This document shows, piece after piece, positions 2,795 to 54,750 of a stretch of DNA of 64,000 nucleotides. The first letter of the stretch is position 1, and each line of letters begins with the position of its first letter. The notes below the pieces were generated by a model. The model had not been told where the DNA came from and searched no databases. It was given only the letters and a program-made list of their open reading frames with translations. Source of the DNA: Dehalococcoidia bacterium (GTDB lineage Bacteria; Chloroflexota; Dehalococcoidia; Lucifugimonadales; JADFKI01); NCBI GenBank assembly GCA_965242555.1, contig CBDESO010000003.1, forward strand, positions 251,385-315,384, read 5' to 3'. A program made the position numbers and the translations under genes.

Positions 2795-3022
2795 ATGTCA
2801 ACCACGACTGCCCCAATCACCGAGCCAATGGCGCGCTTGGAAGGCGCGTATGAGCGTCTGGCGACAAAGGCGGACTTGGTAGAACTAGAGCTCCGCCTAA
2901 CGCAGCAAATGGCGCAGATGGAATCGCGTATGGCGCAGCTAGAAACGCGCATGACTTGGCGTCTGATAGGCGCGTCAGGTGCGATAGTAGCGGCGGTGGC
3001 GCTTATTGTGCGGTTCTTGTAG
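2795..3022 (+). CDS. Small tail-anchored coiled-coil protein, paralog 5 (75 aa)
   Basis: ORF track. Same N-box and C-terminal helix, with extra heptads (LELRLTQQMAQMESRMAQLETRMT). Confidence 0.7.
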   Translation: MSTTTAPITEPMARLEGAYERLATKADLVELELRLTQQMAQMESRMAQLETRMTWRLIGASGAIVAAVALIVRFL

Positions 3023-10899: not shown

Positions 10900-11038
10900 G
10901 GGGTAGGGGCGTTTCCAGTTGAGTGGGCGAGCGTATTTGCCGTTGCTGCCGGTTGGGCGCGTGTCAAGGGTGATTTTGAAATTGGCGATATGCGCTATGA
11001 GGCAATGTGCGCTATAATAGGGGCGCAGGAGGCGCGCA

Positions 11039-12349
11039 ATGGTAGCTGAGATACGAACTTCGCAGGATCTGCTGGATCTGCTTGACAACAACGAAGAGTT
11101 TCGGCGGGCGGCGCAGCGGGCGCTGCTGACTGACGGCCTGCTGGAGTTGCCCGATATTGTGCGGGAGATGCAGCAGACGCAAAGGCTGATGATCCAGCAG
11201 ATAGCTCAGGTGGCTGAGCGAATGGATCGGATGGAAGAGCGGCAGGATCGCATGGAAGATCTGCTGGCGCGGGTTGTTGCTCAACAGGAATTGACCAAAG
11301 AGCGGATTGACCGTATGGACGCGCGGTTTGAGCAAGTTGCCGCTGAAATGGCGAGCATGAACAAGCGGATTGGCGACCTTGACGGGCGAGTTGACAGCAT
11401 AGACAGGCGGGTTGGCGATATTGACGGGCGAGTTGACAACATTGACAAGCGGGTTGGCGATATTGACGGGCGGCTGAGGGGCTGGGAGCTGGAGCGCGAG
11501 TCGATCAGAAAGTTGCTGCCGCGGCTGGCGCGAGAGTACGACGTGCGACGCATAAGAGCGGTTAGCGCGGATTCGCACAGGTCCGCCATTAGGGTGAATG
11601 ATGTCTGGGAGGCGCGGTTTGAGGAGGCGGTTACCGAGGCGTTTGACGCGGAGCGCATCACGGCGGCAGAGGATGGCTTGCTTGACAGAACCGATATTGT
11701 CGCGCGAGGGCTACGCATAGACGACGGGTCTGATCTATGGTTCGTGGTTCAGGCGTCCGTCACTATTGATAACGATGACATTGATCGGGCGGCGGCGGGC
11801 GCGGTTGCGCTGCGAAAGGTGAGTGGCGATGACGCGGCGGCGGTGGTTTATGGGCGGCGCATTGCGGCGCAGCAGCGGGTTCGGGCCGACGATCTTGATG
11901 TGGCGGTGATGCTGGATGATGAGGGCGAACAGGCGATGGCCGCGGCAACTCCGCCTAGCCCATCGCTGGGCGCGCCAAGCGACGGCTGGCAGTCGCTATC
12001 TGACATTCGCCCCAAACCAGGCGATCGCAAGCCAAGGCAAATGATGCTACCTGATAATTCGGTAGTTGCCATACGGCTTTGGAACCATGTGGGGCTCGAA
12101 GTAGTTCGGTGGCTCACAAACAACGGGCGTTTAGACGCGAGCCACTGCCCTATCCGACATGATGCGTCGAAGTACATCGTTGACGTTCAGCCAACACATC
12201 CGGGCAACAGAGGCGGATTCGTGAAGACGCAAGAAGTGAATTCGCTCCATGTTGACCTGCACTATAACGCCTCGCACGCGGCAAATAACGCGAGGATCAT
12301 CATTGGGCGCGCGGGAATGGACGCATCCCAATTCAAGCTGCGCTGGTAG
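11039..12349 (+). CDS. Coiled-coil protein with RVGDIDG heptad repeats, a nuclease-like central module and a unique C-terminal domain
   Basis: RIGDLDGRVDSIDRRVGDIDGRVDNIDKRVGDIDGRL, then ...DGSDLWFVVQASVTIDNDDIDRAAAGAVAL..., a layout recalled from DUF3782-type proteins. AGGAGG precedes the ATG. Confidence 0.5.
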   Translation: MVAEIRTSQDLLDLLDNNEEFRRAAQRALLTDGLLELPDIVREMQQTQRLMIQQIAQVAERMDRMEERQDRMEDLLARVVAQQELTKERIDRMDARFEQVAAEMASMNKRIGDLDGRVDSIDRRVGDIDGRVDNIDKRVGDIDGRLRGWELERESIRKLLPRLAREYDVRRIRAVSADSHRSAIRVNDVWEARFEEAVTEAFDAERITAAEDGLLDRTDIVARGLRIDDGSDLWFVVQASVTIDNDDIDRAAAGAVALRKVSGDDAAAVVYGRRIAAQQRVRADDLDVAVMLDDEGEQAMAAATPPSPSLGAPSDGWQSLSDIRPKPGDRKPRQMMLPDNSVVAIRLWNHVGLEVVRWLTNNGRLDASHCPIRHDASKYIVDVQPTHPGNRGGFVKTQEVNSLHVDLHYNASHAANNARIIIGRAGMDASQFKLRW

Positions 12350-12466
12350 CCGAGCGCGCCTTGACGCGCGGCGCTTTGGCGGGCTTTGTTGGGATGATAC
12401 GCCGCTTTCATTCCCCCCCACGCCGCGCGAAACGCGCGGCAATTTTGATTTGCGCTAAACTTTTTG

Positions 12467-12496
12467 TTGACAATACTTTGTGAAACCCTATACAAT
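12467..12496 (+). promoter_or_regulatory. Sigma70-like promoter (TTGACA-18 nt-TACAAT) upstream of the aro leader
   Basis: TTGACA 12467-12472, TACAAT 12491-12496. Confidence 0.5.
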
Positions 12497-12503
12497 ATCC
12501 CCG

Positions 12504-12596
12504 ATGTGTAACTCAACCAATTCGCGGCCCCGCGCCAGCTACGCCTATTATTACTTTACCGACGCATATACCGTCGGCGGAGGCTTGGCGTCTTAA
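12504..12596 (+). CDS. Candidate 30-codon leader peptide rich in Tyr/Phe (MCNSTNSRPRASYAYYYFTDAYTVGGGLAS)
   Basis: Hand translation. Five Tyr and one Phe fall within 11 residues, between a promoter and an intrinsic terminator upstream of DAHP synthase. There is no SD, and the ATG lies ~8 nt after the -10, so translation would be leaderless. Confidence 0.4.
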   Translation: MCNSTNSRPRASYAYYYFTDAYTVGGGLAS

Positions 12597-12628
12597 CTGG
12601 ACTGCGATACCACACAAGGCAATCAAGA

Positions 12629-12658
12629 CCCCAGCCGGCGGCGCTGGGGTTTTTGTTT
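12629..12658 (+). terminator. Rho-independent terminator (attenuator candidate)
   Basis: Stem CCCCAGC (12629-35) / GCTGGGG (12643-49), 7-nt loop, then TTTTTGTTT. Confidence 0.65.
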
Positions 12659-12848
12659 GCCATTCCCACGCATCCGCCAAAGCGCGCGCGGCGAGGATAG
12701 CGCAACAACCGCATAGCGACCGAATAGGCAATCCAAGTTAGCAAGGCATTAGACAAGCAAAGCGTTTAGCAAGGCAAAGCATCAAGCGAACAAAGCGTTA
12801 AACAAGGCAAAGCGCGATAGGCGCAGAAAGGAAAGAGAGGCAACCGCA

Positions 12849-13928
12849 ATGCAACCATCACCGGCGAGGGATGTGAATGTGATGAGCACCGAACCGCTTG
12901 TCAGCCCCGTGGGGCTTGTCAACGAACTGCCGCTGACCGAAGACGTGGAGGCGGTCGTGCTGGAGGGCAGGCGACAGATCCAGGCAATCCTGCGGGGAGA
13001 CGACGAGCGATTCATGGTCATCACGGGCCCATGCTCGGTTCACGACGAGGGCGCGGCGATAGAGTACGCGCAGCGGCTGAAGGAACTGCAAGACGCCCTC
13101 GCCGACCGCATGCTCATCGTGATGCGCGTGTATTTCGAAAAGCCGCGCACAACGGTCGGGTGGAAAGGGATGATCTACGATCCCTATCTCAACGACACAT
13201 TCGACATCGGCGAGGGCTTGCGGCGCGCGCGCAAGATGCTGCTGCGTATCGGCGAAATGGGCGTCTATACCGCCACCGAGTTCCTGGATCCCATCGTGCC
13301 GCAGTATCTCGCCGGGCTGGTTTCGTGGGCGGCTATCGGCGCGCGCACTACCGAAAGCCAAACCCATCGCCAAATGGCGAGCGGCCTCAGCATGCCCGTC
13401 GGGTTCAAGAACGGCACCGACGGCGACGCGCAAATCGCGGTGGACGCTATGGTTTCGGCGCGCTCCGAACACGCCTTTCTGGGCATTGACCACTACGGGC
13501 AGACCTGCGTGGTTCACACAACCGGCAACCCGTATGGGCATCTGGTTATGCGCGGCGGCAGGGATGGGCCGAACTACACGCCTGAGGCTATCGCGGCGGC
13601 GCAGGCGCTGCTCGGCAAGGCGGACGCGCCCTCGCAGCTGCTTGTGGACTGCTCGCACGGCAACTCCAACAAAGACCACACGCGCCAGAACATCGCGCTG
13701 CACTCCATCATAGAGCAGCGCATCGCGGGCAATGACGGCATCATTGGCTGCATGATGGAAAGCAACCTAAACCCCGGCAGCCAGAGCATCAACGGCTCGC
13801 TGACTGAGCTGGAATACGGCGTATCGGTGACGGATTCCTGCATCGGCTGGGACGAAACCGAGGCGCTGCTGCGGGAGGCGCATGAGCAGCTCGCGCCGGT
13901 GGTGCGGCAGGCGGCGCTCGTAGGGTAG
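12849..13928 (+). CDS. aroG: 3-deoxy-7-phosphoheptulonate (DAHP) synthase, class I (AroF/G/H type)
   Basis: RFMVITGPCSVHD, RVYFEKPRTTVGWKG, GARTTESQTHRQMASGLSMPVGFKNGTDG and LVDCSHGNS. Confidence 0.9.
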   Translation: MQPSPARDVNVMSTEPLVSPVGLVNELPLTEDVEAVVLEGRRQIQAILRGDDERFMVITGPCSVHDEGAAIEYAQRLKELQDALADRMLIVMRVYFEKPRTTVGWKGMIYDPYLNDTFDIGEGLRRARKMLLRIGEMGVYTATEFLDPIVPQYLAGLVSWAAIGARTTESQTHRQMASGLSMPVGFKNGTDGDAQIAVDAMVSARSEHAFLGIDHYGQTCVVHTTGNPYGHLVMRGGRDGPNYTPEAIAAAQALLGKADAPSQLLVDCSHGNSNKDHTRQNIALHSIIEQRIAGNDGIIGCMMESNLNPGSQSINGSLTELEYGVSVTDSCIGWDETEALLREAHEQLAPVVRQAALVG

Positions 13929-14064
13929 GGGCAAACCCTTATCGCGCAGCCTATCGCATAGATAGCCGCAACAACAAAATACGCGAACCGCAAGCCCCGC
14001 CTTGACCGCTGACAAGGCGGCAAGGCGGGGCAAGCCCATTCCCGCAATCATCCCGGAGGCAAAT

Positions 14065-14910
14065 ATGAGCGCTGACACCGGCAGGTTTCACGGCAAGGCG
14101 GCGATAGTCACGGGCGGCGCTATGGGCATAGGCGGCGCAACCGCCCGGCGGCTCGCCGCGGACGGCGCGAGCGTACTGGTGGCGGACATCGATCTGCAGG
14201 CGGCCCAAGCCAACGTTGCCACCATACGCGCGGCTGGCGGAGTGGCGGATGCTTTCGCCGCGGACGTCGGCAAATCCGAAGACATCGCCGCTATGGTCGC
14301 CCGCGCCGCCGACCTCTGGGGCAGGCTGGACATCCTGGTCAACAACGCATACAGCCCCACCGATGAGACTGACGGCGACGCGCTCACCGTCAGCGAGGAT
14401 GCATGGGACGCGGGAATGGCGACGCTAGTCAAGGCGCACTTCCTAGCCGCCAAATACGCCGTCCCCCATATGCGCGCCAGCGGCGGCGGCAGCATCGTCA
14501 ACATATCCTCCGTTCACGGCTTGCTAATGGCGCCCCGCAAGCTCATCTACGAGGCGGGCAAATCGGCGGTAATCGGCATAACCAAGCAGATGGCGATAGA
14601 CTTCGGCCCCCTCGGCATCCGCGTCAACGCCATCTGCCCCGGCCACATCGTAACCGAGCGCCAGCGCGAAAACTGGGACAGCAACCCGTCCGGCCTGCGC
14701 TACTTCCAAGACCAATACCCCGTCCGGCGCGTAGGAACCCCCGACGACATAGCCAACGCGGTGGCGTTCCTATGCTCCGCCGACGCCTCATTCATCACCG
14801 GCCACGCGCTAGTGGTGGACGGCGGTCTAACCATCCAGCTCCAAGAAGACTTCAGCGTCCGCCAAGCCCACTACCTCCGCCAAAACCCCGAAACGCGGCT
14901 GCCGTATTGA
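14065..14910 (+). CDS. SDR-family oxidoreductase
   Basis: Internal ATG after GGAGG. TGGAMGIGGATARRLAADGASVLVAD (TGxxxGxG) and YEAGKSAV (YxxxK). Confidence 0.85.
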   Translation: MSADTGRFHGKAAIVTGGAMGIGGATARRLAADGASVLVADIDLQAAQANVATIRAAGGVADAFAADVGKSEDIAAMVARAADLWGRLDILVNNAYSPTDETDGDALTVSEDAWDAGMATLVKAHFLAAKYAVPHMRASGGGSIVNISSVHGLLMAPRKLIYEAGKSAVIGITKQMAIDFGPLGIRVNAICPGHIVTERQRENWDSNPSGLRYFQDQYPVRRVGTPDDIANAVAFLCSADASFITGHALVVDGGLTIQLQEDFSVRQAHYLRQNPETRLPY

Positions 14911-15006
14911 CGCGCCGTGATACGATACCCCGTGATACCTTGTGATGGCGATGCCAAGCGGATACCCTGCCCGATTGCCGCGCCGCGCACTGCCCTGTGA
15001 TGCCCG

Positions 15007-40883: not shown

Positions 40884-42836
40884 CTAGGCGTGATTCGGCT
40901 GCTTGGCGCAGGGGCGGCTAGTTGGATGTCGGGGTCGGACTGGGGCAACGTCGGGGTCAAGATGATCGGGGTAGCAGCTTTGATTAGCCGCGTCATCGCT
41001 ATTCGTGCCGTCTGGGCAGGTGGTGTCGTCCCAATCGACTTCCTCTATATCGCCCGCCTGTAGCATATTCTTCGCGCCCTCCAGATCGGCGTCATCGAAC
41101 TCGGCGTCGTTCACGCTGGTGTTTCGGAAATCGGCGCCGGGGAAGTCGGAGTTGGGGAATTTGGCGTCGTCCAAAGTGGCGCCCTCGAAGTCCACGTCGT
41201 CGAACTTGCAGTTCATAAAGATGGCGTCGGTCATGATGGCGTCATGGAGGATGGAACTATCGAAATCCACCCGCTCCCACCTGACTTTGGACATATCCAC
41301 ACCCGTCATATCCGCCTTGAGGAATTTCGTCTTCGTATCCACGATGGCGCTCGTCAGGTCAACCTTGTCCATTTTGGTGTCTTCCAACACCGCGCCGGAC
41401 AGGTCGGTCTTGTCCAAAGTGGCGGTTCGCAGGTCAGCGTCTTCCAGGATGGCGTTAATCAGCGATGAGTTGGACAAGTCGGCGTCGATAAAGCCCACGC
41501 CGCTGAGATCTATGCCCTCGTTGAATGCGACGTTGGTCAGTATCGCGCCCCTGAACTTGGCGGCGTTGTTCTTTTTGGCGTTTGTGGTTGCCCTAATGCG
41601 GGCGTCTGTGAGATTGACGCTGTCCATCTCGGCGCGCGTGAACTTGGTTTCGGTGATGTCCGCGCCGCTGAGGTTGGCGTTGTTCAGAATAGCGTCGGTC
41701 ATGTCTGTTTGCTTGAGGTTGGCGTTTGAGAGGTTGGCGCCGGTGAAGTTCGCCTTTCTGAGGTTGGAGTTGGTGATGATTGCGCCCGTTAGGTTGGCGT
41801 TGGCGAGGTCTTTTTCGGACCAGTCAACGCTGTTGAAAACGCAACCGATGAGGTCTGTGCCGGGGCCGATTTCGGCGCAGGGTTCGCGCGCGCCGGTGGC
41901 TGTGGGCTCAGGCGTGGGCGTGGATTCGAGAGCGGGAGTAGGCGGATTAGGCGTGGCAGTGGGCGTAGGCGTAGGCGTAGCGGGCGGCGCGCCTGCCACG
42001 GTTCCGTCCTCAAGATGCGCTACTCTGGTTGCCAGAATAGCGACCTGATTTTTGAGATCCGCCAGTTCCGCGAGCTGCGTTTCAAGCGCGATAAGCCTGG
42101 ATAGAAGGGCATCGTAGGACGCCGGAGTCGCGGTGGGCATGGGGGTTGAGGTGGATGCGGGCGTTGGCGCGGCAGCGCAAATTGGCAACGCAAGCCGCCT
42201 TATCTCCGCGCTGCCCAAAGGCAGGCGCAAGGATTGGGGAATACAACCCGTGAACCGATTGCCGTGGAGACGCAAACCATCAGAGCGCTCGAGGTTGGAA
42301 AGGTTGCCTAACTCGGAGGGAATCACGCCGGACAGGTCATTGTTTTCGAGATTCAATGCCTCAAGACTGGCAAGGTTGCCCAACTCGGAGGGGATCTCGC
42401 CCGTCAGGGCATTGTTTGCGAGATCCAATGCCCGAAGGCTGGCAAGGTTGCCCAACGCGGAAGGAATCGCGCCATTCAAGGATCTATCCGGCAAAGACAA
42501 TCTTGTTACGCGATTGTGTTCTATGGTTACGCCGCCCCAATCGCTAATGCGAATATCCGCCGACCAGTTTAGGTTGCCGCTCGCGCCTGCAAGCGTATCC
42601 TTTAAGGCGAGCAACGTGGCGCAGTCTTCCACAAGGCCGGGGTTGTATGCAAGGTTTGGCGCGGCTATGCCGTTGGAGCATTGCTCGGTGTACTGGGCGG
42701 GCATGGCGCGAGCCGATGCGTCCGCGTTAAGAGCGATTGCTCCGCCCGCGCCGGTCATCAGCAGCGAAACCGCTACCACTGACAGCGCCGCAACCAACGC
42801 TAGGGCGGCTGTTATTCTGATTGCGCGCTTGGACAT
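40884..42836 (-). CDS. Secreted LRR + coiled-coil + PT-linker + pentapeptide-repeat fusion protein
   Basis: Signal-like MSKRAIRITAALALVAALSVVAV (alternative upstream ATG at 42914). Plant-type LRRs (LxxLxLxxNxLxGxIPSELGNLxxL), [17 protein letters not shown], then over 250 aa of A(D/N)LxX pentapeptide repeats. Confidence 0.75.
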   Translation of the reverse strand: MSKRAIRITAALALVAALSVVAVSLLMTGAGGAIALNADASARAMPAQYTEQCSNGIAAPNLAYNPGLVEDCATLLALKDTLAGASGNLNWSADIRISDWGGVTIEHNRVTRLSLPDRSLNGAIPSALGNLASLRALDLANNALTGEIPSELGNLASLEALNLENNDLSGVIPSELGNLSNLERSDGLRLHGNRFTGCIPQSLRLPLGSAEIRRLALPICAAAPTPASTSTPMPTATPASYDALLSRLIALETQLAELADLKNQVAILATRVAHLEDGTVAGAPPATPTPTPTATPNPPTPALESTPTPEPTATGAREPCAEIGPGTDLIGCVFNSVDWSEKDLANANLTGAIITNSNLRKANFTGANLSNANLKQTDMTDAILNNANLSGADITETKFTRAEMDSVNLTDARIRATTNAKKNNAAKFRGAILTNVAFNEGIDLSGVGFIDADLSNSSLINAILEDADLRTATLDKTDLSGAVLEDTKMDKVDLTSAIVDTKTKFLKADMTGVDMSKVRWERVDFDSSILHDAIMTDAIFMNCKFDDVDFEGATLDDAKFPNSDFPGADFRNTSVNDAEFDDADLEGAKNMLQAGDIEEVDWDDTTCPDGTNSDDAANQSCYPDHLDPDVAPVRPRHPTSRPCAKQPNHA

Positions 42837-52798: not shown

Positions 52799-53046
52799 AG
52801 GCGGATGTTGGGGGGATAAGGTAGTCTGACGGCGGCTGTTTAATGGGTAGCAAGCCAGGCGCGGCTGGCGGTTATGGGTGAGTTGTGAATGATAGGTTGT
52901 CGGTGGCTAATCGCCGCTGATATGGTAGTTGCTAATCGGCGAGCTGTTGGCTACATAGCGCTTGGATGATGCTTGCTAAGCCAAAGTGCGGACATCTTCA
53001 CTAAACCCGCCCACTAGACGCAGGACGATTAAATTTGAAACAACCC

Positions 53047-53076
53047 TTGACACGCGCCCAAAACCCCCGCTATTCT
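53047..53076 (+). promoter_or_regulatory. Sigma70-like promoter (TTGACA-18-TATTCT)
   Basis: TTGACA 53047-52 and TATTCT 53071-76, 100 nt before ATG 53176. Confidence 0.4.
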
Positions 53077-53104
53077 TATACCAGAACAAATTATCAGACA
53101 CCTA

Positions 53105-53143
53105 CCCAAAAGTTTTTGCTACTTTTTTCTAAAAAAGTAGGGC
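53105..53143 (-). repeat. Intergenic hairpin element (copy 11)
   Basis: Reverse complement GCCCTACTTTTTTAGAAAAAAGTAGCAAAAACTTTTGGG. Confidence 0.6.
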
Positions 53144-53175
53144 CCCGGCGGCGGGGGGACTTGGAGGCAACCAAC

Positions 53176-54750
53176 ATGACAACCGCAACCGCAACCCGCG
53201 AACCCATAACGCACGAACAGGCGCTATCCGAACAGGAACGCGTCCGCCACAACATCGCCCGCCGCGTCAACCAACTCACCCACGACGGCGACCGCCTCAT
53301 CCAATTCATGTGGGACACCGTCCAAGGCGAATACCCCGACGCCAAATTCCACCACCGCCAAAACGCCGCGCGCGACCTCGCCGTTATGAGCGGCAACCTC
53401 CCACAAGACACCCCCGGCTCCCCCGCTCGCGTCATCCGCGAAGAAGACATGCCCAAACCCAAAACCCCCAAAGTAACCCTAAAACAGATAATCAACAAGC
53501 CCATCGGCGCATACATACGCGAAAAAACCGACGACTGCCGCGACCTCGCAACCGAATACTACAACATCCTATTCCCGCGCCCCGTCTTCGAAAGCGCCAA
53601 CCCCGACGAAAAAAAATACCAAAAAGCCACCCGGATCCGCCCGCACCACCAAGTAGCCGCGCTCAAAGAAATGATGAAACGCAGCATCGGCAGCCGCAAC
53701 CCATACGCCTACCCGCAAACCTCCGCTATGGAAGAAAAAATGCTCAACAGCAAGTTGGGAACGGAAATGCGCCTGTCAATGGACAAAGGCATGGGATACG
53801 CGCGCTACATGTTCGAAATCCTAGAAAACGACAAAACCGACCGCTGGGGCAACATAATAACCGACCCCTTCACCCAAACCCACCGCATCTGGGCGCTCAA
53901 CGAACTCTGCCGCATGGGCGCCGACATCCCCTGGGAACACATAACCCCAGAGTCCATAGACGCCTTCTTCCGCGACCTCCACGCCAAAGAGCGCCGCGAG
54001 GCGGAACGCCTCCTAGCCCAGCGCCAACAATCCGCCGCCACCGAACTCACCCCTGAGCAAAAAGCCGGCGTCCTACAAATGTTCGAACAAATGCAGCGCA
54101 CAACCGACGCCAACGACCGCAAAGCCGCCAAGAAAACCCAAAAGAAAGCCAAAAAAGCCGACGCCGCCAAAGCCGACGCCCACAACTACAACAACCCCGC
54201 CAACCGCAGCGCCGTCGCCAACGCCGCCGATGACGCCAAGAGCGCCGCCAACGGCAACAATGGCGAGAATGGCAACAACGTCGCCAAAGACAGCGCCAAC
54301 GGCGAGAATGGCAACAACGTCGCAAATCGCAAAAACGCAGAGAGCGCCGCCAGCGGCAAGAATGGCGAGAATGTCAACAACGCCGCCAACCGCAAAAACG
54401 CCAAGAACGCCGCCAGCGGCAAGAGCGCTGCCAATGCCAAGAACACCGGCAAAGACACCGGCGCAGCCAACAGCGCCCACGCCCCCGACACCCCCACAAC
54501 CCGCGGCGAAACCGCCGTAGCCAACGCCCTAGCCCGCCACCCCGAAGTGGACTTGGACACTGCCTTGGAAAACCACCACTCCACCGCCGGCATCCCCAAA
54601 CAAAACCTAACCCACGAACAAATCTACGACGCCATCACAGCCGAGGCAAACTTCCAAAAACGCCAAGCCATAATCCAAAGCCGCCTGCGCTCAAAAAACC
54701 CCGACGCGGCCACTGAGGACAACGCTCCCCCCAAATCCCGCAGCCCTTAG
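53176..54750 (+). CDS. Hypothetical protein with an internally duplicated N-terminal module and an Asn/Gly/Ala/Lys low-complexity region
   Basis: Internal ATG after GGAGG. Two similar modules (LIQFMWDTV...HHRQNAARDLAVMSG / ARYMFEILE...THRIWALNELCRMG), then NGNNGENGNNVAKDSANGENGNNVANRKNA... Confidence 0.55.
   Translation: MTTATATREPITHEQALSEQERVRHNIARRVNQLTHDGDRLIQFMWDTVQGEYPDAKFHHRQNAARDLAVMSGNLPQDTPGSPARVIREEDMPKPKTPKVTLKQIINKPIGAYIREKTDDCRDLATEYYNILFPRPVFESANPDEKKYQKATRIRPHHQVAALKEMMKRSIGSRNPYAYPQTSAMEEKMLNSKLGTEMRLSMDKGMGYARYMFEILENDKTDRWGNIITDPFTQTHRIWALNELCRMGADIPWEHITPESIDAFFRDLHAKERREAERLLAQRQQSAATELTPEQKAGVLQMFEQMQRTTDANDRKAAKKTQKKAKKADAAKADAHNYNNPANRSAVANAADDAKSAANGNNGENGNNVAKDSANGENGNNVANRKNAESAASGKNGENVNNAANRKNAKNAASGKSAANAKNTGKDTGAANSAHAPDTPTTRGETAVANALARHPEVDLDTALENHHSTAGIPKQNLTHEQIYDAITAEANFQKRQAIIQSRLRSKNPDAATEDNAPPKSRSP

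Follow-up and report, generated by a model that had tools for sequence, protein, structure and literature searches.

Leader-peptide control of a 3-deoxy-7-phosphoheptulonate (DAHP) synthase gene has been described in Corynebacterium glutamicum, in which the leader peptide aroR is followed by an attenuator of aroF (Neshat et al. 2014, as summarised in PMC11802643); the aroR-aroF arrangement was first seen by RNA-seq (PMC4046766). According to PMC11802643, the aroR motif is only Phe-Tyr-Phe, and the system responded to Phe and not to Tyr. The DAHP synthase of Escherichia coli is controlled by the TyrR and TrpR repressors (PMC11802643). Here we analyse a stretch of 64,000 nucleotides (nt) from a Dehalococcoidia bacterium (GCA_965242555.1, contig CBDESO010000003.1, positions 251,385 to 315,384 of the forward strand; hereafter the window), in which a compact element at 12467-12848 lies directly ahead of aroG, a gene for a class-I DAHP synthase. 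An original prediction, made from the letters of the window, had taken this element for an attenuator of the pheL/trpL type and had pointed to the aroR precedent, which indeed exists (PMC11802643, PMC4046766). The pheL/trpL-type reading is supported by the conserved layout of the element, by codon-level selection in its leader, and by mutually exclusive RNA structures. With considerable confidence we regard the element as a ribosome-mediated (leader-peptide) transcription attenuator that controls the monocistronic aroG gene.

All the parts listed in the original prediction, namely a promoter, a 30-codon open reading frame (ORF), a hairpin, a terminator and the class-I DAHP synthase gene, were found on the plus strand of the window. 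The sigma-70-type promoter (12467-12496) consists of a -35 box TTGACA (12467-12472), an 18-nt spacer and a -10 box TACAAT (12491-12496), as had been proposed; it matches the consensus at 11 of 12 positions and is the sole promoter-like site in a scan of 11000-15000. Transcription is predicted to start at ~12503-12504, about 7 nt past the -10 box. The leader peptide ORF extends from the ATG at 12504 to the TAA at 12594-12596 (30 codons, MCNSTNSRPRASYAYYYFTDAYTVGGGLAS), as previously claimed, and contains the regulatory codon run TAC GCC TAT TAT TAC TTT (Tyr-Ala-Tyr-Tyr-Tyr-Phe, YAYYYF) at 12540-12557. Region 1 (12554-12564) is the 5' arm of the hairpin P1 (C-UUU-A-CCGACG) in the RNAalifold consensus. 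Region 2 (12571-12588) is both the 3' arm of P1 (CGTCGG at 12572-12577, plus GGAG) and the antiterminator 5' strand (CCGUCGGCGG-A-GGCUUGG), and the stop codon TAA of the leader is situated 6 nt past it. Region 3 (12623-12641), the antiterminator 3' strand, holds the terminator 5' arm (12627-12635) together with most of the terminator loop (12636-12642). Regions 3 and 4 form the intrinsic terminator (12627-12658), in which the stem GACCCCAGC / GCUGGGGUU (12627-12635 / 12643-12651) closes the loop CGGCGGC and is followed by TTTTTGTTT, so that both the terminator and the T-run of the original prediction hold. The hairpin CCGACG-CATATAC-CGTCGG is likewise real; it spans 12559-12577, the start first given (12558) being off by one. 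A variable, purine-rich spacer (12659-12848), with an AGAGAGG at 12834-12840 that resembles a Shine-Dalgarno (SD) sequence, separates the terminator from aroG (12849-13928), which encodes an AroF/G/H-type enzyme of 359 amino acids (aa).

The window belongs to a Dehalococcoidia metagenome-assembled genome (MAG). Its DAHP synthase shares 99% identity with the enzyme of a Dehalococcoidia MAG, L001 (OZ251547.1), and the next ~40 best DAHP synthase loci are in Dehalococcoidia or Chloroflexota MAGs as well. An nhmmer search with the upstream region of the window found the segment 12539-12660 conserved ahead of the DAHP synthase orthologue in 14 further loci. The entire layout, comprising the promoter, a short ORF rich in Tyr, Phe or Trp, the hairpin and the terminator, is present in 37 loci, which are the window, 34 of L001-L038, L046 and L057; L022 carries the layout as well. 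The mini-ORF and its aromatic codons are kept in the 36 loci besides the window, as expected of an attenuator in the original prediction. About 10 metagenome contigs also possess the leader, bringing the related Dehalococcoidia/Chloroflexota sequences to ~45 overall. Across the 37 loci, to which the counts below refer unless another set is named, the leader has 21-34 codons, and its in-frame stop is always ahead of the terminator, with 18-57 nt (median 27) between the stop codon and the terminator 5' arm. The aromatic run has 5-10 codons and is dominated by Tyr, with Trp in some lineages, as illustrated by the leaders MINANTLWFYAYYYFTDANEVGRGDAS (L003), MRVSNRYAYYYYYFTGPTAAGEGQVRGT (L015), MMISSHRFYGYYWLFTGSSAAGRGLVPENR (L008) and MSTACRQIVPGYYRPFYFYAYRSTASVNPAWEAR (L021). 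No such ORF was found ahead of the DAHP synthase in loci from Planctomycetota, Hydrogenedentota, Verrucomicrobiota and similar groups, in which the enzyme is 55-60% identical.

A window of six codons with at least five aromatic ones occurs once on the plus strand of the 64 kb, at 12540, and the expectation for such windows in shuffled sequence is 0.26, which makes a chance origin improbable. In the leader frame of the 37 loci, 250 of 1086 codons (23%) are aromatic (Tyr 150, Phe 79 and Trp 21). The share is 5.5% and 7.4% when the two alternative frames are read, and the DAHP synthase genes themselves have 5.1%. For a 14-member leader subfamily (alignment A2), non-consensus letters were tallied at each codon position. 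The N-terminal part of the A2 leaders, with 26, 34 and 21 such letters at codon positions 1, 2 and 3, is without coding constraint; the aromatic block upstream of P1, with 4, 12 and 28, varies chiefly at third positions. Within this block Pro occurs as CCC, CCG or CCA, Phe occurs as TTT or TTC, and one aligned codon is TAC, TAT, TTC or TGG in 13 of the 14 sequences. Such third-position variation, accompanied by swaps among Tyr, Phe and Trp, points to selection for aromatic codons and not for a particular peptide or RNA sequence. The codon statistics thus indicate that the leader ORF is translated and that its aromatic codons are under codon-level selection. Outside the aromatic run, the only conserved peptide positions are those overlapping RNA helices. 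The five Tyr and one Phe within 11 residues that were originally counted are present in the window, but Tyr22 (12567-12569) is replaced by Asn in L001, and the conserved regulatory run is therefore confined to Y13-F18 (12540-12557). This run is the proposed site at which the ribosome would stall at low levels of charged tRNA-Tyr or tRNA-Phe. Since the conserved run has four Tyr codons and a single Phe codon, the signal sensed in the window should be chiefly tyrosine.

These features bear on another explanation, in which the element would be an attenuator or riboswitch that works without ribosome sensing, through a T-box, a metabolite riboswitch or a protein of the TRAP/PyrR kind, and the ORF would be incidental. 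Conserved alternative hairpins in front of an intrinsic terminator are common to all such mechanisms, and tyrosine genes of Firmicutes are T-box-controlled, as cited in PMC1262725. Frame-specific aromatic enrichment and third-position variation would, however, be unexpected in an untranslated RNA. Also against this explanation are the fixed distance from promoter to start codon, the in-frame stop always placed before the terminator, and the RNA 5' of the aromatic run, which is not conserved. No Rfam family matches the element, T-box included: at gathering thresholds the whole window gave two tRNAs only and no leader, T-box or riboswitch family, and at E values up to 10 the segment 12300-12900 gave four chance-level matches, none to a leader or T-box family. 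We consider a sensor of this type very unlikely. A tRNA or tmRNA identity of the element was excluded as well.

The 166 nt at 12500-12665 fold with z = -2.74 relative to dinucleotide shuffles. On alignment A1, which contains 21 diverse leaders, RNAalifold independently predicts two helices, P1 and the terminator. The P1 5' arm of the A1 consensus (C-UUU-A-CCGGC) starts inside the last aromatic codons, and the corresponding arm of the window (12554-12564) overlaps TAC TTT and then the ACC GAC codons. P1 and the terminator together are paired in 92.6% of the cells on A1 and in 91.1% on A3, an alignment of 30 sequences, compared with 26-48% in slid registers; none of 500 shuffles reached their covariation score, and 6 pairs show compensatory changes. 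The pairs of P1 are 91% formed, with compensatory changes from G-C to A-U, and the terminator stem is 91-93% paired, with compensatory changes at 4 of 10 pairs. When 12500-12860 was folded as one RNA, z was -0.07, with no sign of a structure joining the attenuator to the aroG ribosome-binding site, and a translational sequestration of that site was dropped on this ground.

The state with a stalled ribosome was folded by masking the nucleotides covered by a ribosome on the Phe codon, at commonly used footprint sizes, and by ending the RNA at the terminator loop. In this masked fold of the window, 12571-12588 pairs with 12623-12641, which takes up the terminator 5' arm in full together with most of the loop, and the same constrained folding yields a 2:3 helix in most relatives. 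The RNA accordingly has a 2:3 pairing that excludes both 1:2 and 3:4, and the antiterminator/terminator alternative of the original prediction holds; the segment that it had assigned to the antiterminator (12582-92) does pair with the terminator 5' arm, but it is merely the inner part of the longer helix. Regions 1 and 3 (both CCGGC) are each complementary to region 2 (GCCGG), and because region 2 must match both of them, the terminator apex CCGGCAGCGG is strongly conserved. In 35 of the 37 leaders the region 2:3 duplex is more stable than the mean of region 2 dinucleotide shuffles (mean z = -2.05, median empirical p 0.037). A seven-pair antiterminator core is 86.5% paired on A3; slid registers reach 3-49%, and a value as high came up in 1 of 500 shuffles. 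In L002 and L003 the three regions changed jointly, with A in region 1, U in region 2 and A in region 3. A first antiterminator model, which used inner helices (A1 columns 82-90 with 142-151), was only 54% paired and was dropped, and the core helix was kept.

In the proposed mechanism, a ribosome would work through the 30 codons of the leader while the segments further downstream are being made by RNA polymerase. With sufficient aromatic amino acids, the ribosome would pass YAYYYF at 12540-12557 and reach the stop codon at 12594, where it would cover region 2, or P1 (regions 1:2) would re-form behind it. Region 3, left free, would then pair with region 4, the terminator (12627-12651) with its U-run would form, and transcription would end at ~12655. 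When aromatic amino acids are scarce, the ribosome would stall on the Tyr/Phe codons and cover region 1, leaving region 2 (12571-12588) free. Region 2 would capture region 3 (12623-12641) on its emergence from the polymerase, the terminator 5' arm and loop would be sequestered, and the polymerase would read through into aroG. The regulated gene encodes the first step of the shikimate pathway, the same pathway that makes the amino acids proposed to be sensed.

Several points weigh against this attenuator. The antiterminator covaries weakly: on A1 the signal does not exceed that of shuffles, and on A3, where 7 cells changed on both sides, 34 of 500 shuffles were as high, and 42 of 500 were as high in covariation score. 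What speaks for the antiterminator is mainly conserved complementarity among phylogenetically related sequences, and in the window the helix has G-U pairs and is interrupted by a bulge. The full-length RNA prefers the terminator at equilibrium, even with the mask of the stalled ribosome. All sequences are MAGs or metagenome contigs, and the element is missing in the relatives L020, L026, L028, L039-L041 and L054. In addition, a survey predicted leaderless genes in only 4 of 12 Chloroflexi genomes, at ~5% of genes (PMC3160421), which bears on the mode of initiation discussed below. Weak covariation of the 2:3 helix is expected, since the segment must pair with two partners, and a terminator that is preferred at equilibrium implies that antitermination would have to be kinetic, as in classical attenuators. 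The equilibrium fold, which favours the terminator in every masked state, and the weak antiterminator covariation would equally suit a constitutively leaky terminator, or an element of mRNA stability or processing, with an accidental ORF and no amino-acid signal. That account leaves unexplained why 5-10 aromatic codons sit exactly at the P1 5' arm in many divergent subfamilies, why region 2 is complementary to both regions 1 and 3, and why the unit is linked exclusively to the first enzyme of the aromatic pathway, and it seems to us even slightly less credible than a sensor working without the ribosome.

Three observations on individual relatives concern variants of the element. In L020 (~2900-3000) and L054 (~2925-3000), a promoter and first leader codons like those of L022 (2730-3000), ATGAAAATTACCTGGG, are fused directly to the DAHP synthase gene's 5' untranslated region (UTR; GGTCACTATATTTATTTGGAAGGAATACCGTG), and in L020 the ATG is changed to AAG. 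The attenuator seems to have been precisely deleted between short CCYGGG repeats, and these two loci would then be natural attenuator-less variants. At ~1290-1345 of L028, a short ORF, MISRFYYGPRAVCLFA, has Phe-Tyr-Tyr codons adjoining a small GGCC-CUCG-GGCC hairpin, followed by GTTTGTCTTTTTG; it may be a minimal attenuator in which a stalled ribosome blocks the terminator directly, or it could be a decayed remnant. In the metagenomic sequence L083 (reverse strand, ~2399-2527), the leader MQITVSFSYAYYFYFYPA stops at a TGA inside P1, right after region 1 rather than region 2, which shows that the position of the stop codon is not fixed across the family.

The leader of the window has its ATG 7 nt past the -10 box and no SD sequence, and its 5' UTR is predicted to be 0-1 nt. 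The original prediction had listed both the missing SD sequence and the closeness of the ATG to the -10 box as caveats; they are real, and they are conserved: in all 37 loci, 5-13 nt (mode 10 nt) separate the end of the -10 hexamer from the leader start codon, and a TTGACA -35 box is seen in nearly all of them. In the same loci, the mean anti-SD duplex is -2.4 kcal/mol at the leaders, as against -8.5 kcal/mol at the DAHP synthase genes. From the spacing of the -10 box and the start codon we infer a 5' UTR of ~0-6 nt and hence leaderless or near-leaderless initiation. Judged by this geometry, translation of the leader is probably leaderless. A precedent is the ilvB leader peptide of C. glutamicum, which is produced without a ribosome-binding site (cited in PMC4046766). 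If leaderless initiation holds class-wide, the sensing ribosome would need to bind in 70S form at the very beginning of the nascent transcript.

The distance from the terminator to the DAHP synthase start varies from 24 to 195 nt across the 37 loci and is ~190 nt in the window. Only 24 nt, SD sequence included, lie between the terminator and the start codon in L006, L009, L013 and L015, which leaves no room for a second promoter and means that the DAHP synthase is expressed by read-through. In the window, no promoter-like site was found between 12497 and 12849. The spacer of the window contains a 17-nt tandem repeat in 3.5 copies (12757-12814, consensus GCAAAGCGTTAAGCAAG); that of L001 is 39 nt shorter and differs in repeat content despite the 99% identity, so the spacer evolves fast by gain and loss of repeats. 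A tandem repeat was also observed in the spacer of L023 (~2900-2985), with four copies of CCAGCGAACCCTTGA. The 190-nt gap that the original prediction had counted as a weakness is thus real, but as a functional objection it is not borne out, since the spacers of relatives are variable and that of the window is a lineage-specific, repeat-bearing stretch.

The same distances are relevant to the possibility that the unit is an independent small gene, a ~150-nt small RNA or a small protein with its own promoter and terminator, and that aroG is transcribed from a separate promoter in the spacer. The complete, strong promoter, the strong terminator and the 190 nt to aroG in the window are what such a gene would show, and in some other bacteria terminated attenuator RNAs and leader peptides can act in trans, rnTrpL and peTrpL of Sinorhizobium being cases in point (PMC7968998, PMC7298713). 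What speaks against such a gene is the spacer free of promoter-like sites, the 24-nt spacers, which force transcription through the terminator, and the peptide positions conserved beyond the aromatic run, which are helix-overlapping ones only. Moreover, the unit always precedes a DAHP synthase gene and shares its orientation, and the scans found none elsewhere. A metagenome collection scanned with the terminator/loop motif alone (CCYCARYCGRCAGCGRYTGGGG) gave 25 loci, of which 9 have an aromatic leader with a DAHP synthase downstream, 2-3 further ones have leader sequence on contigs that end too soon, and the rest are ordinary terminators without a leader. None of the 25 matches had a leader-bearing module ahead of a gene other than DAHP synthase. 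The scan added the leader variants MSSLHPHTLGFFYYWYYFTGFQAAGEGLVPRF (L098) and MQIRNSYAYYWYYFTGPTAAGEVQVRGK (L094), and an nhmmer search of the window with the leader profile returned 12504-12659 only and no second copy. An independent gene is therefore an improbable account, to which we give as little credence as to a sensor without a ribosome.

Starting from the attenuator as the preferred reading, a broader proposal can be put forward, though tentatively and with more doubt than belief. It holds jointly that mRNAs beginning with a 5'-terminal AUG, and thus leaderless, carry the attenuator throughout one class of Chloroflexota; that a single leader integrates the charging of tRNA-Tyr and tRNA-Phe, joined in certain lineages by tRNA-Trp, and so gates the common aromatic pathway; and that the ~150-nt RNA or the peptide might also act in trans, as rnTrpL and peTrpL do.

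The enzyme encoded at 12849-13928 exceeds the cut-offs of TIGR00034 aroFGH, with 471.7 bits, and of PRK12755, with 499.8 bits. Its closest solved structure is the Tyr-sensitive AroF (6agl/6agm, 386 bits), while the Phe-sensitive AroG scores 365 bits. In the HAFLG motif (13470-13484), the Gly is aligned with the Gly of HRFVG in AroF (6agm) and with the Ser of HCFLS in AroG. This Ser/Gly position reportedly sets sensitivity to Phe or Tyr in the enzyme family, in work attributed to Hartmann et al. 2003 and Cross et al. 2013. The Gly of HAFLG suggests feedback inhibition by tyrosine, which would fit the Tyr-rich leader. The same Gly is found in clade members without the leader, so that it does not discriminate and carries little weight.

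Upstream of the element, an intrinsic terminator-like hairpin on the plus strand (12422-12450, GCCGCGCG-AAA-CGCGCGGC plus a T-rich tail) has 8 G-C pairs followed by AATTTTGATT. It is located 73 nt past the end of the upstream gene and 17 nt ahead of the attenuator -35 box, and it would shield the attenuator promoter from upstream transcription. The upstream ORF (11039-12349) encodes a coiled-coil protein of 436 aa with weak, sub-threshold matches to SMC/arcadin-like coiled coils. Elsewhere in the window, the only other run of aromatic codons, on the minus strand (53610-53627, AFWYFF), lies opposite a Lys-rich segment of a 571-aa ORF and was rejected as chance; that ORF (53035-54750, plus strand) has a long, repetitive C-terminal half rich in Asn, Gly, Ala and Lys, with units such as NGENGNNVA. 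A crude scan for other ORFs with amino-acid runs followed by terminators gave a sole match, a Val/Gly-rich short ORF (41914-42048, plus strand) with a weak terminator-like hairpin, which is probably a GC-rich repeat lying within a gene or on the strand opposite one.

An attenuator of a Chloroflexi or Dehalococcoidia DAHP synthase was not found in the literature or in broad attenuator surveys, many subscription journals being out of reach. The sequence features described above make it very probable that the element is a classic ribosome-sensing attenuator, and we found none described for this phylum. As a mechanism it would be unsurprising, and the comparison of relatives supports it well. It would extend classical ribosome-mediated attenuation to the Dehalococcoidia and Chloroflexota, which are largely uncultured and whose regulation is almost unstudied. 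It would also indicate that tRNA charging can gate the entry step of the aromatic pathway as well as its terminal branches, in parallel with aroR, the only such case known and an actinobacterial one. A natural test case for SD-independent coupling of transcription and translation could be provided by the conserved leaderless geometry. The alignments could seed a new Rfam family and improve the annotation of MAGs, in which the leader is otherwise unannotated or called a hypothetical protein, and the codon make-up of the leader may offer a sequence-only hint to the limiting aromatic amino acid in each lineage.

Among known systems, aroR-aroF of C. glutamicum comes closest; it shares with the Chloroflexota element a short Phe/Tyr leader ORF directly ahead of the DAHP synthase gene and a read-through raised by stalling, the latter being proposed here. 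The differences are that aroR is found in Actinomycetota, and that the Chloroflexota run has 5-10 codons, dominated by Tyr and including Trp in some lineages, a comparison in which aroR is represented by its published description only. The Chloroflexota element likely originated independently of aroR. In the case of pheL-pheA and trpL-trpEDCBA of E. coli, the likeness lies in the four-segment scheme of 1:2, 2:3 and 3:4 pairings, in regulatory codons placed in or beside segment 1, and in a terminator with a U-run. In contrast to these systems, the target in Chloroflexota is the DAHP synthase of the common pathway instead of a terminal-branch gene; the leader has no SD sequence and is probably leaderless; it mixes codons for Tyr, Phe and sometimes Trp, whereas each E. 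coli leader senses a single amino acid; and it has no match to an Rfam model, the models of the E. coli type being Phe_leader (RF01859) and Trp_leader (RF00513). The T-box of Firmicutes resembles the element in that a terminator/antiterminator switch reads tRNA charging ahead of amino-acid biosynthesis genes. However, the T-box binds uncharged tRNA directly, without translation, whereas the Chloroflexota element points to a translated ORF.

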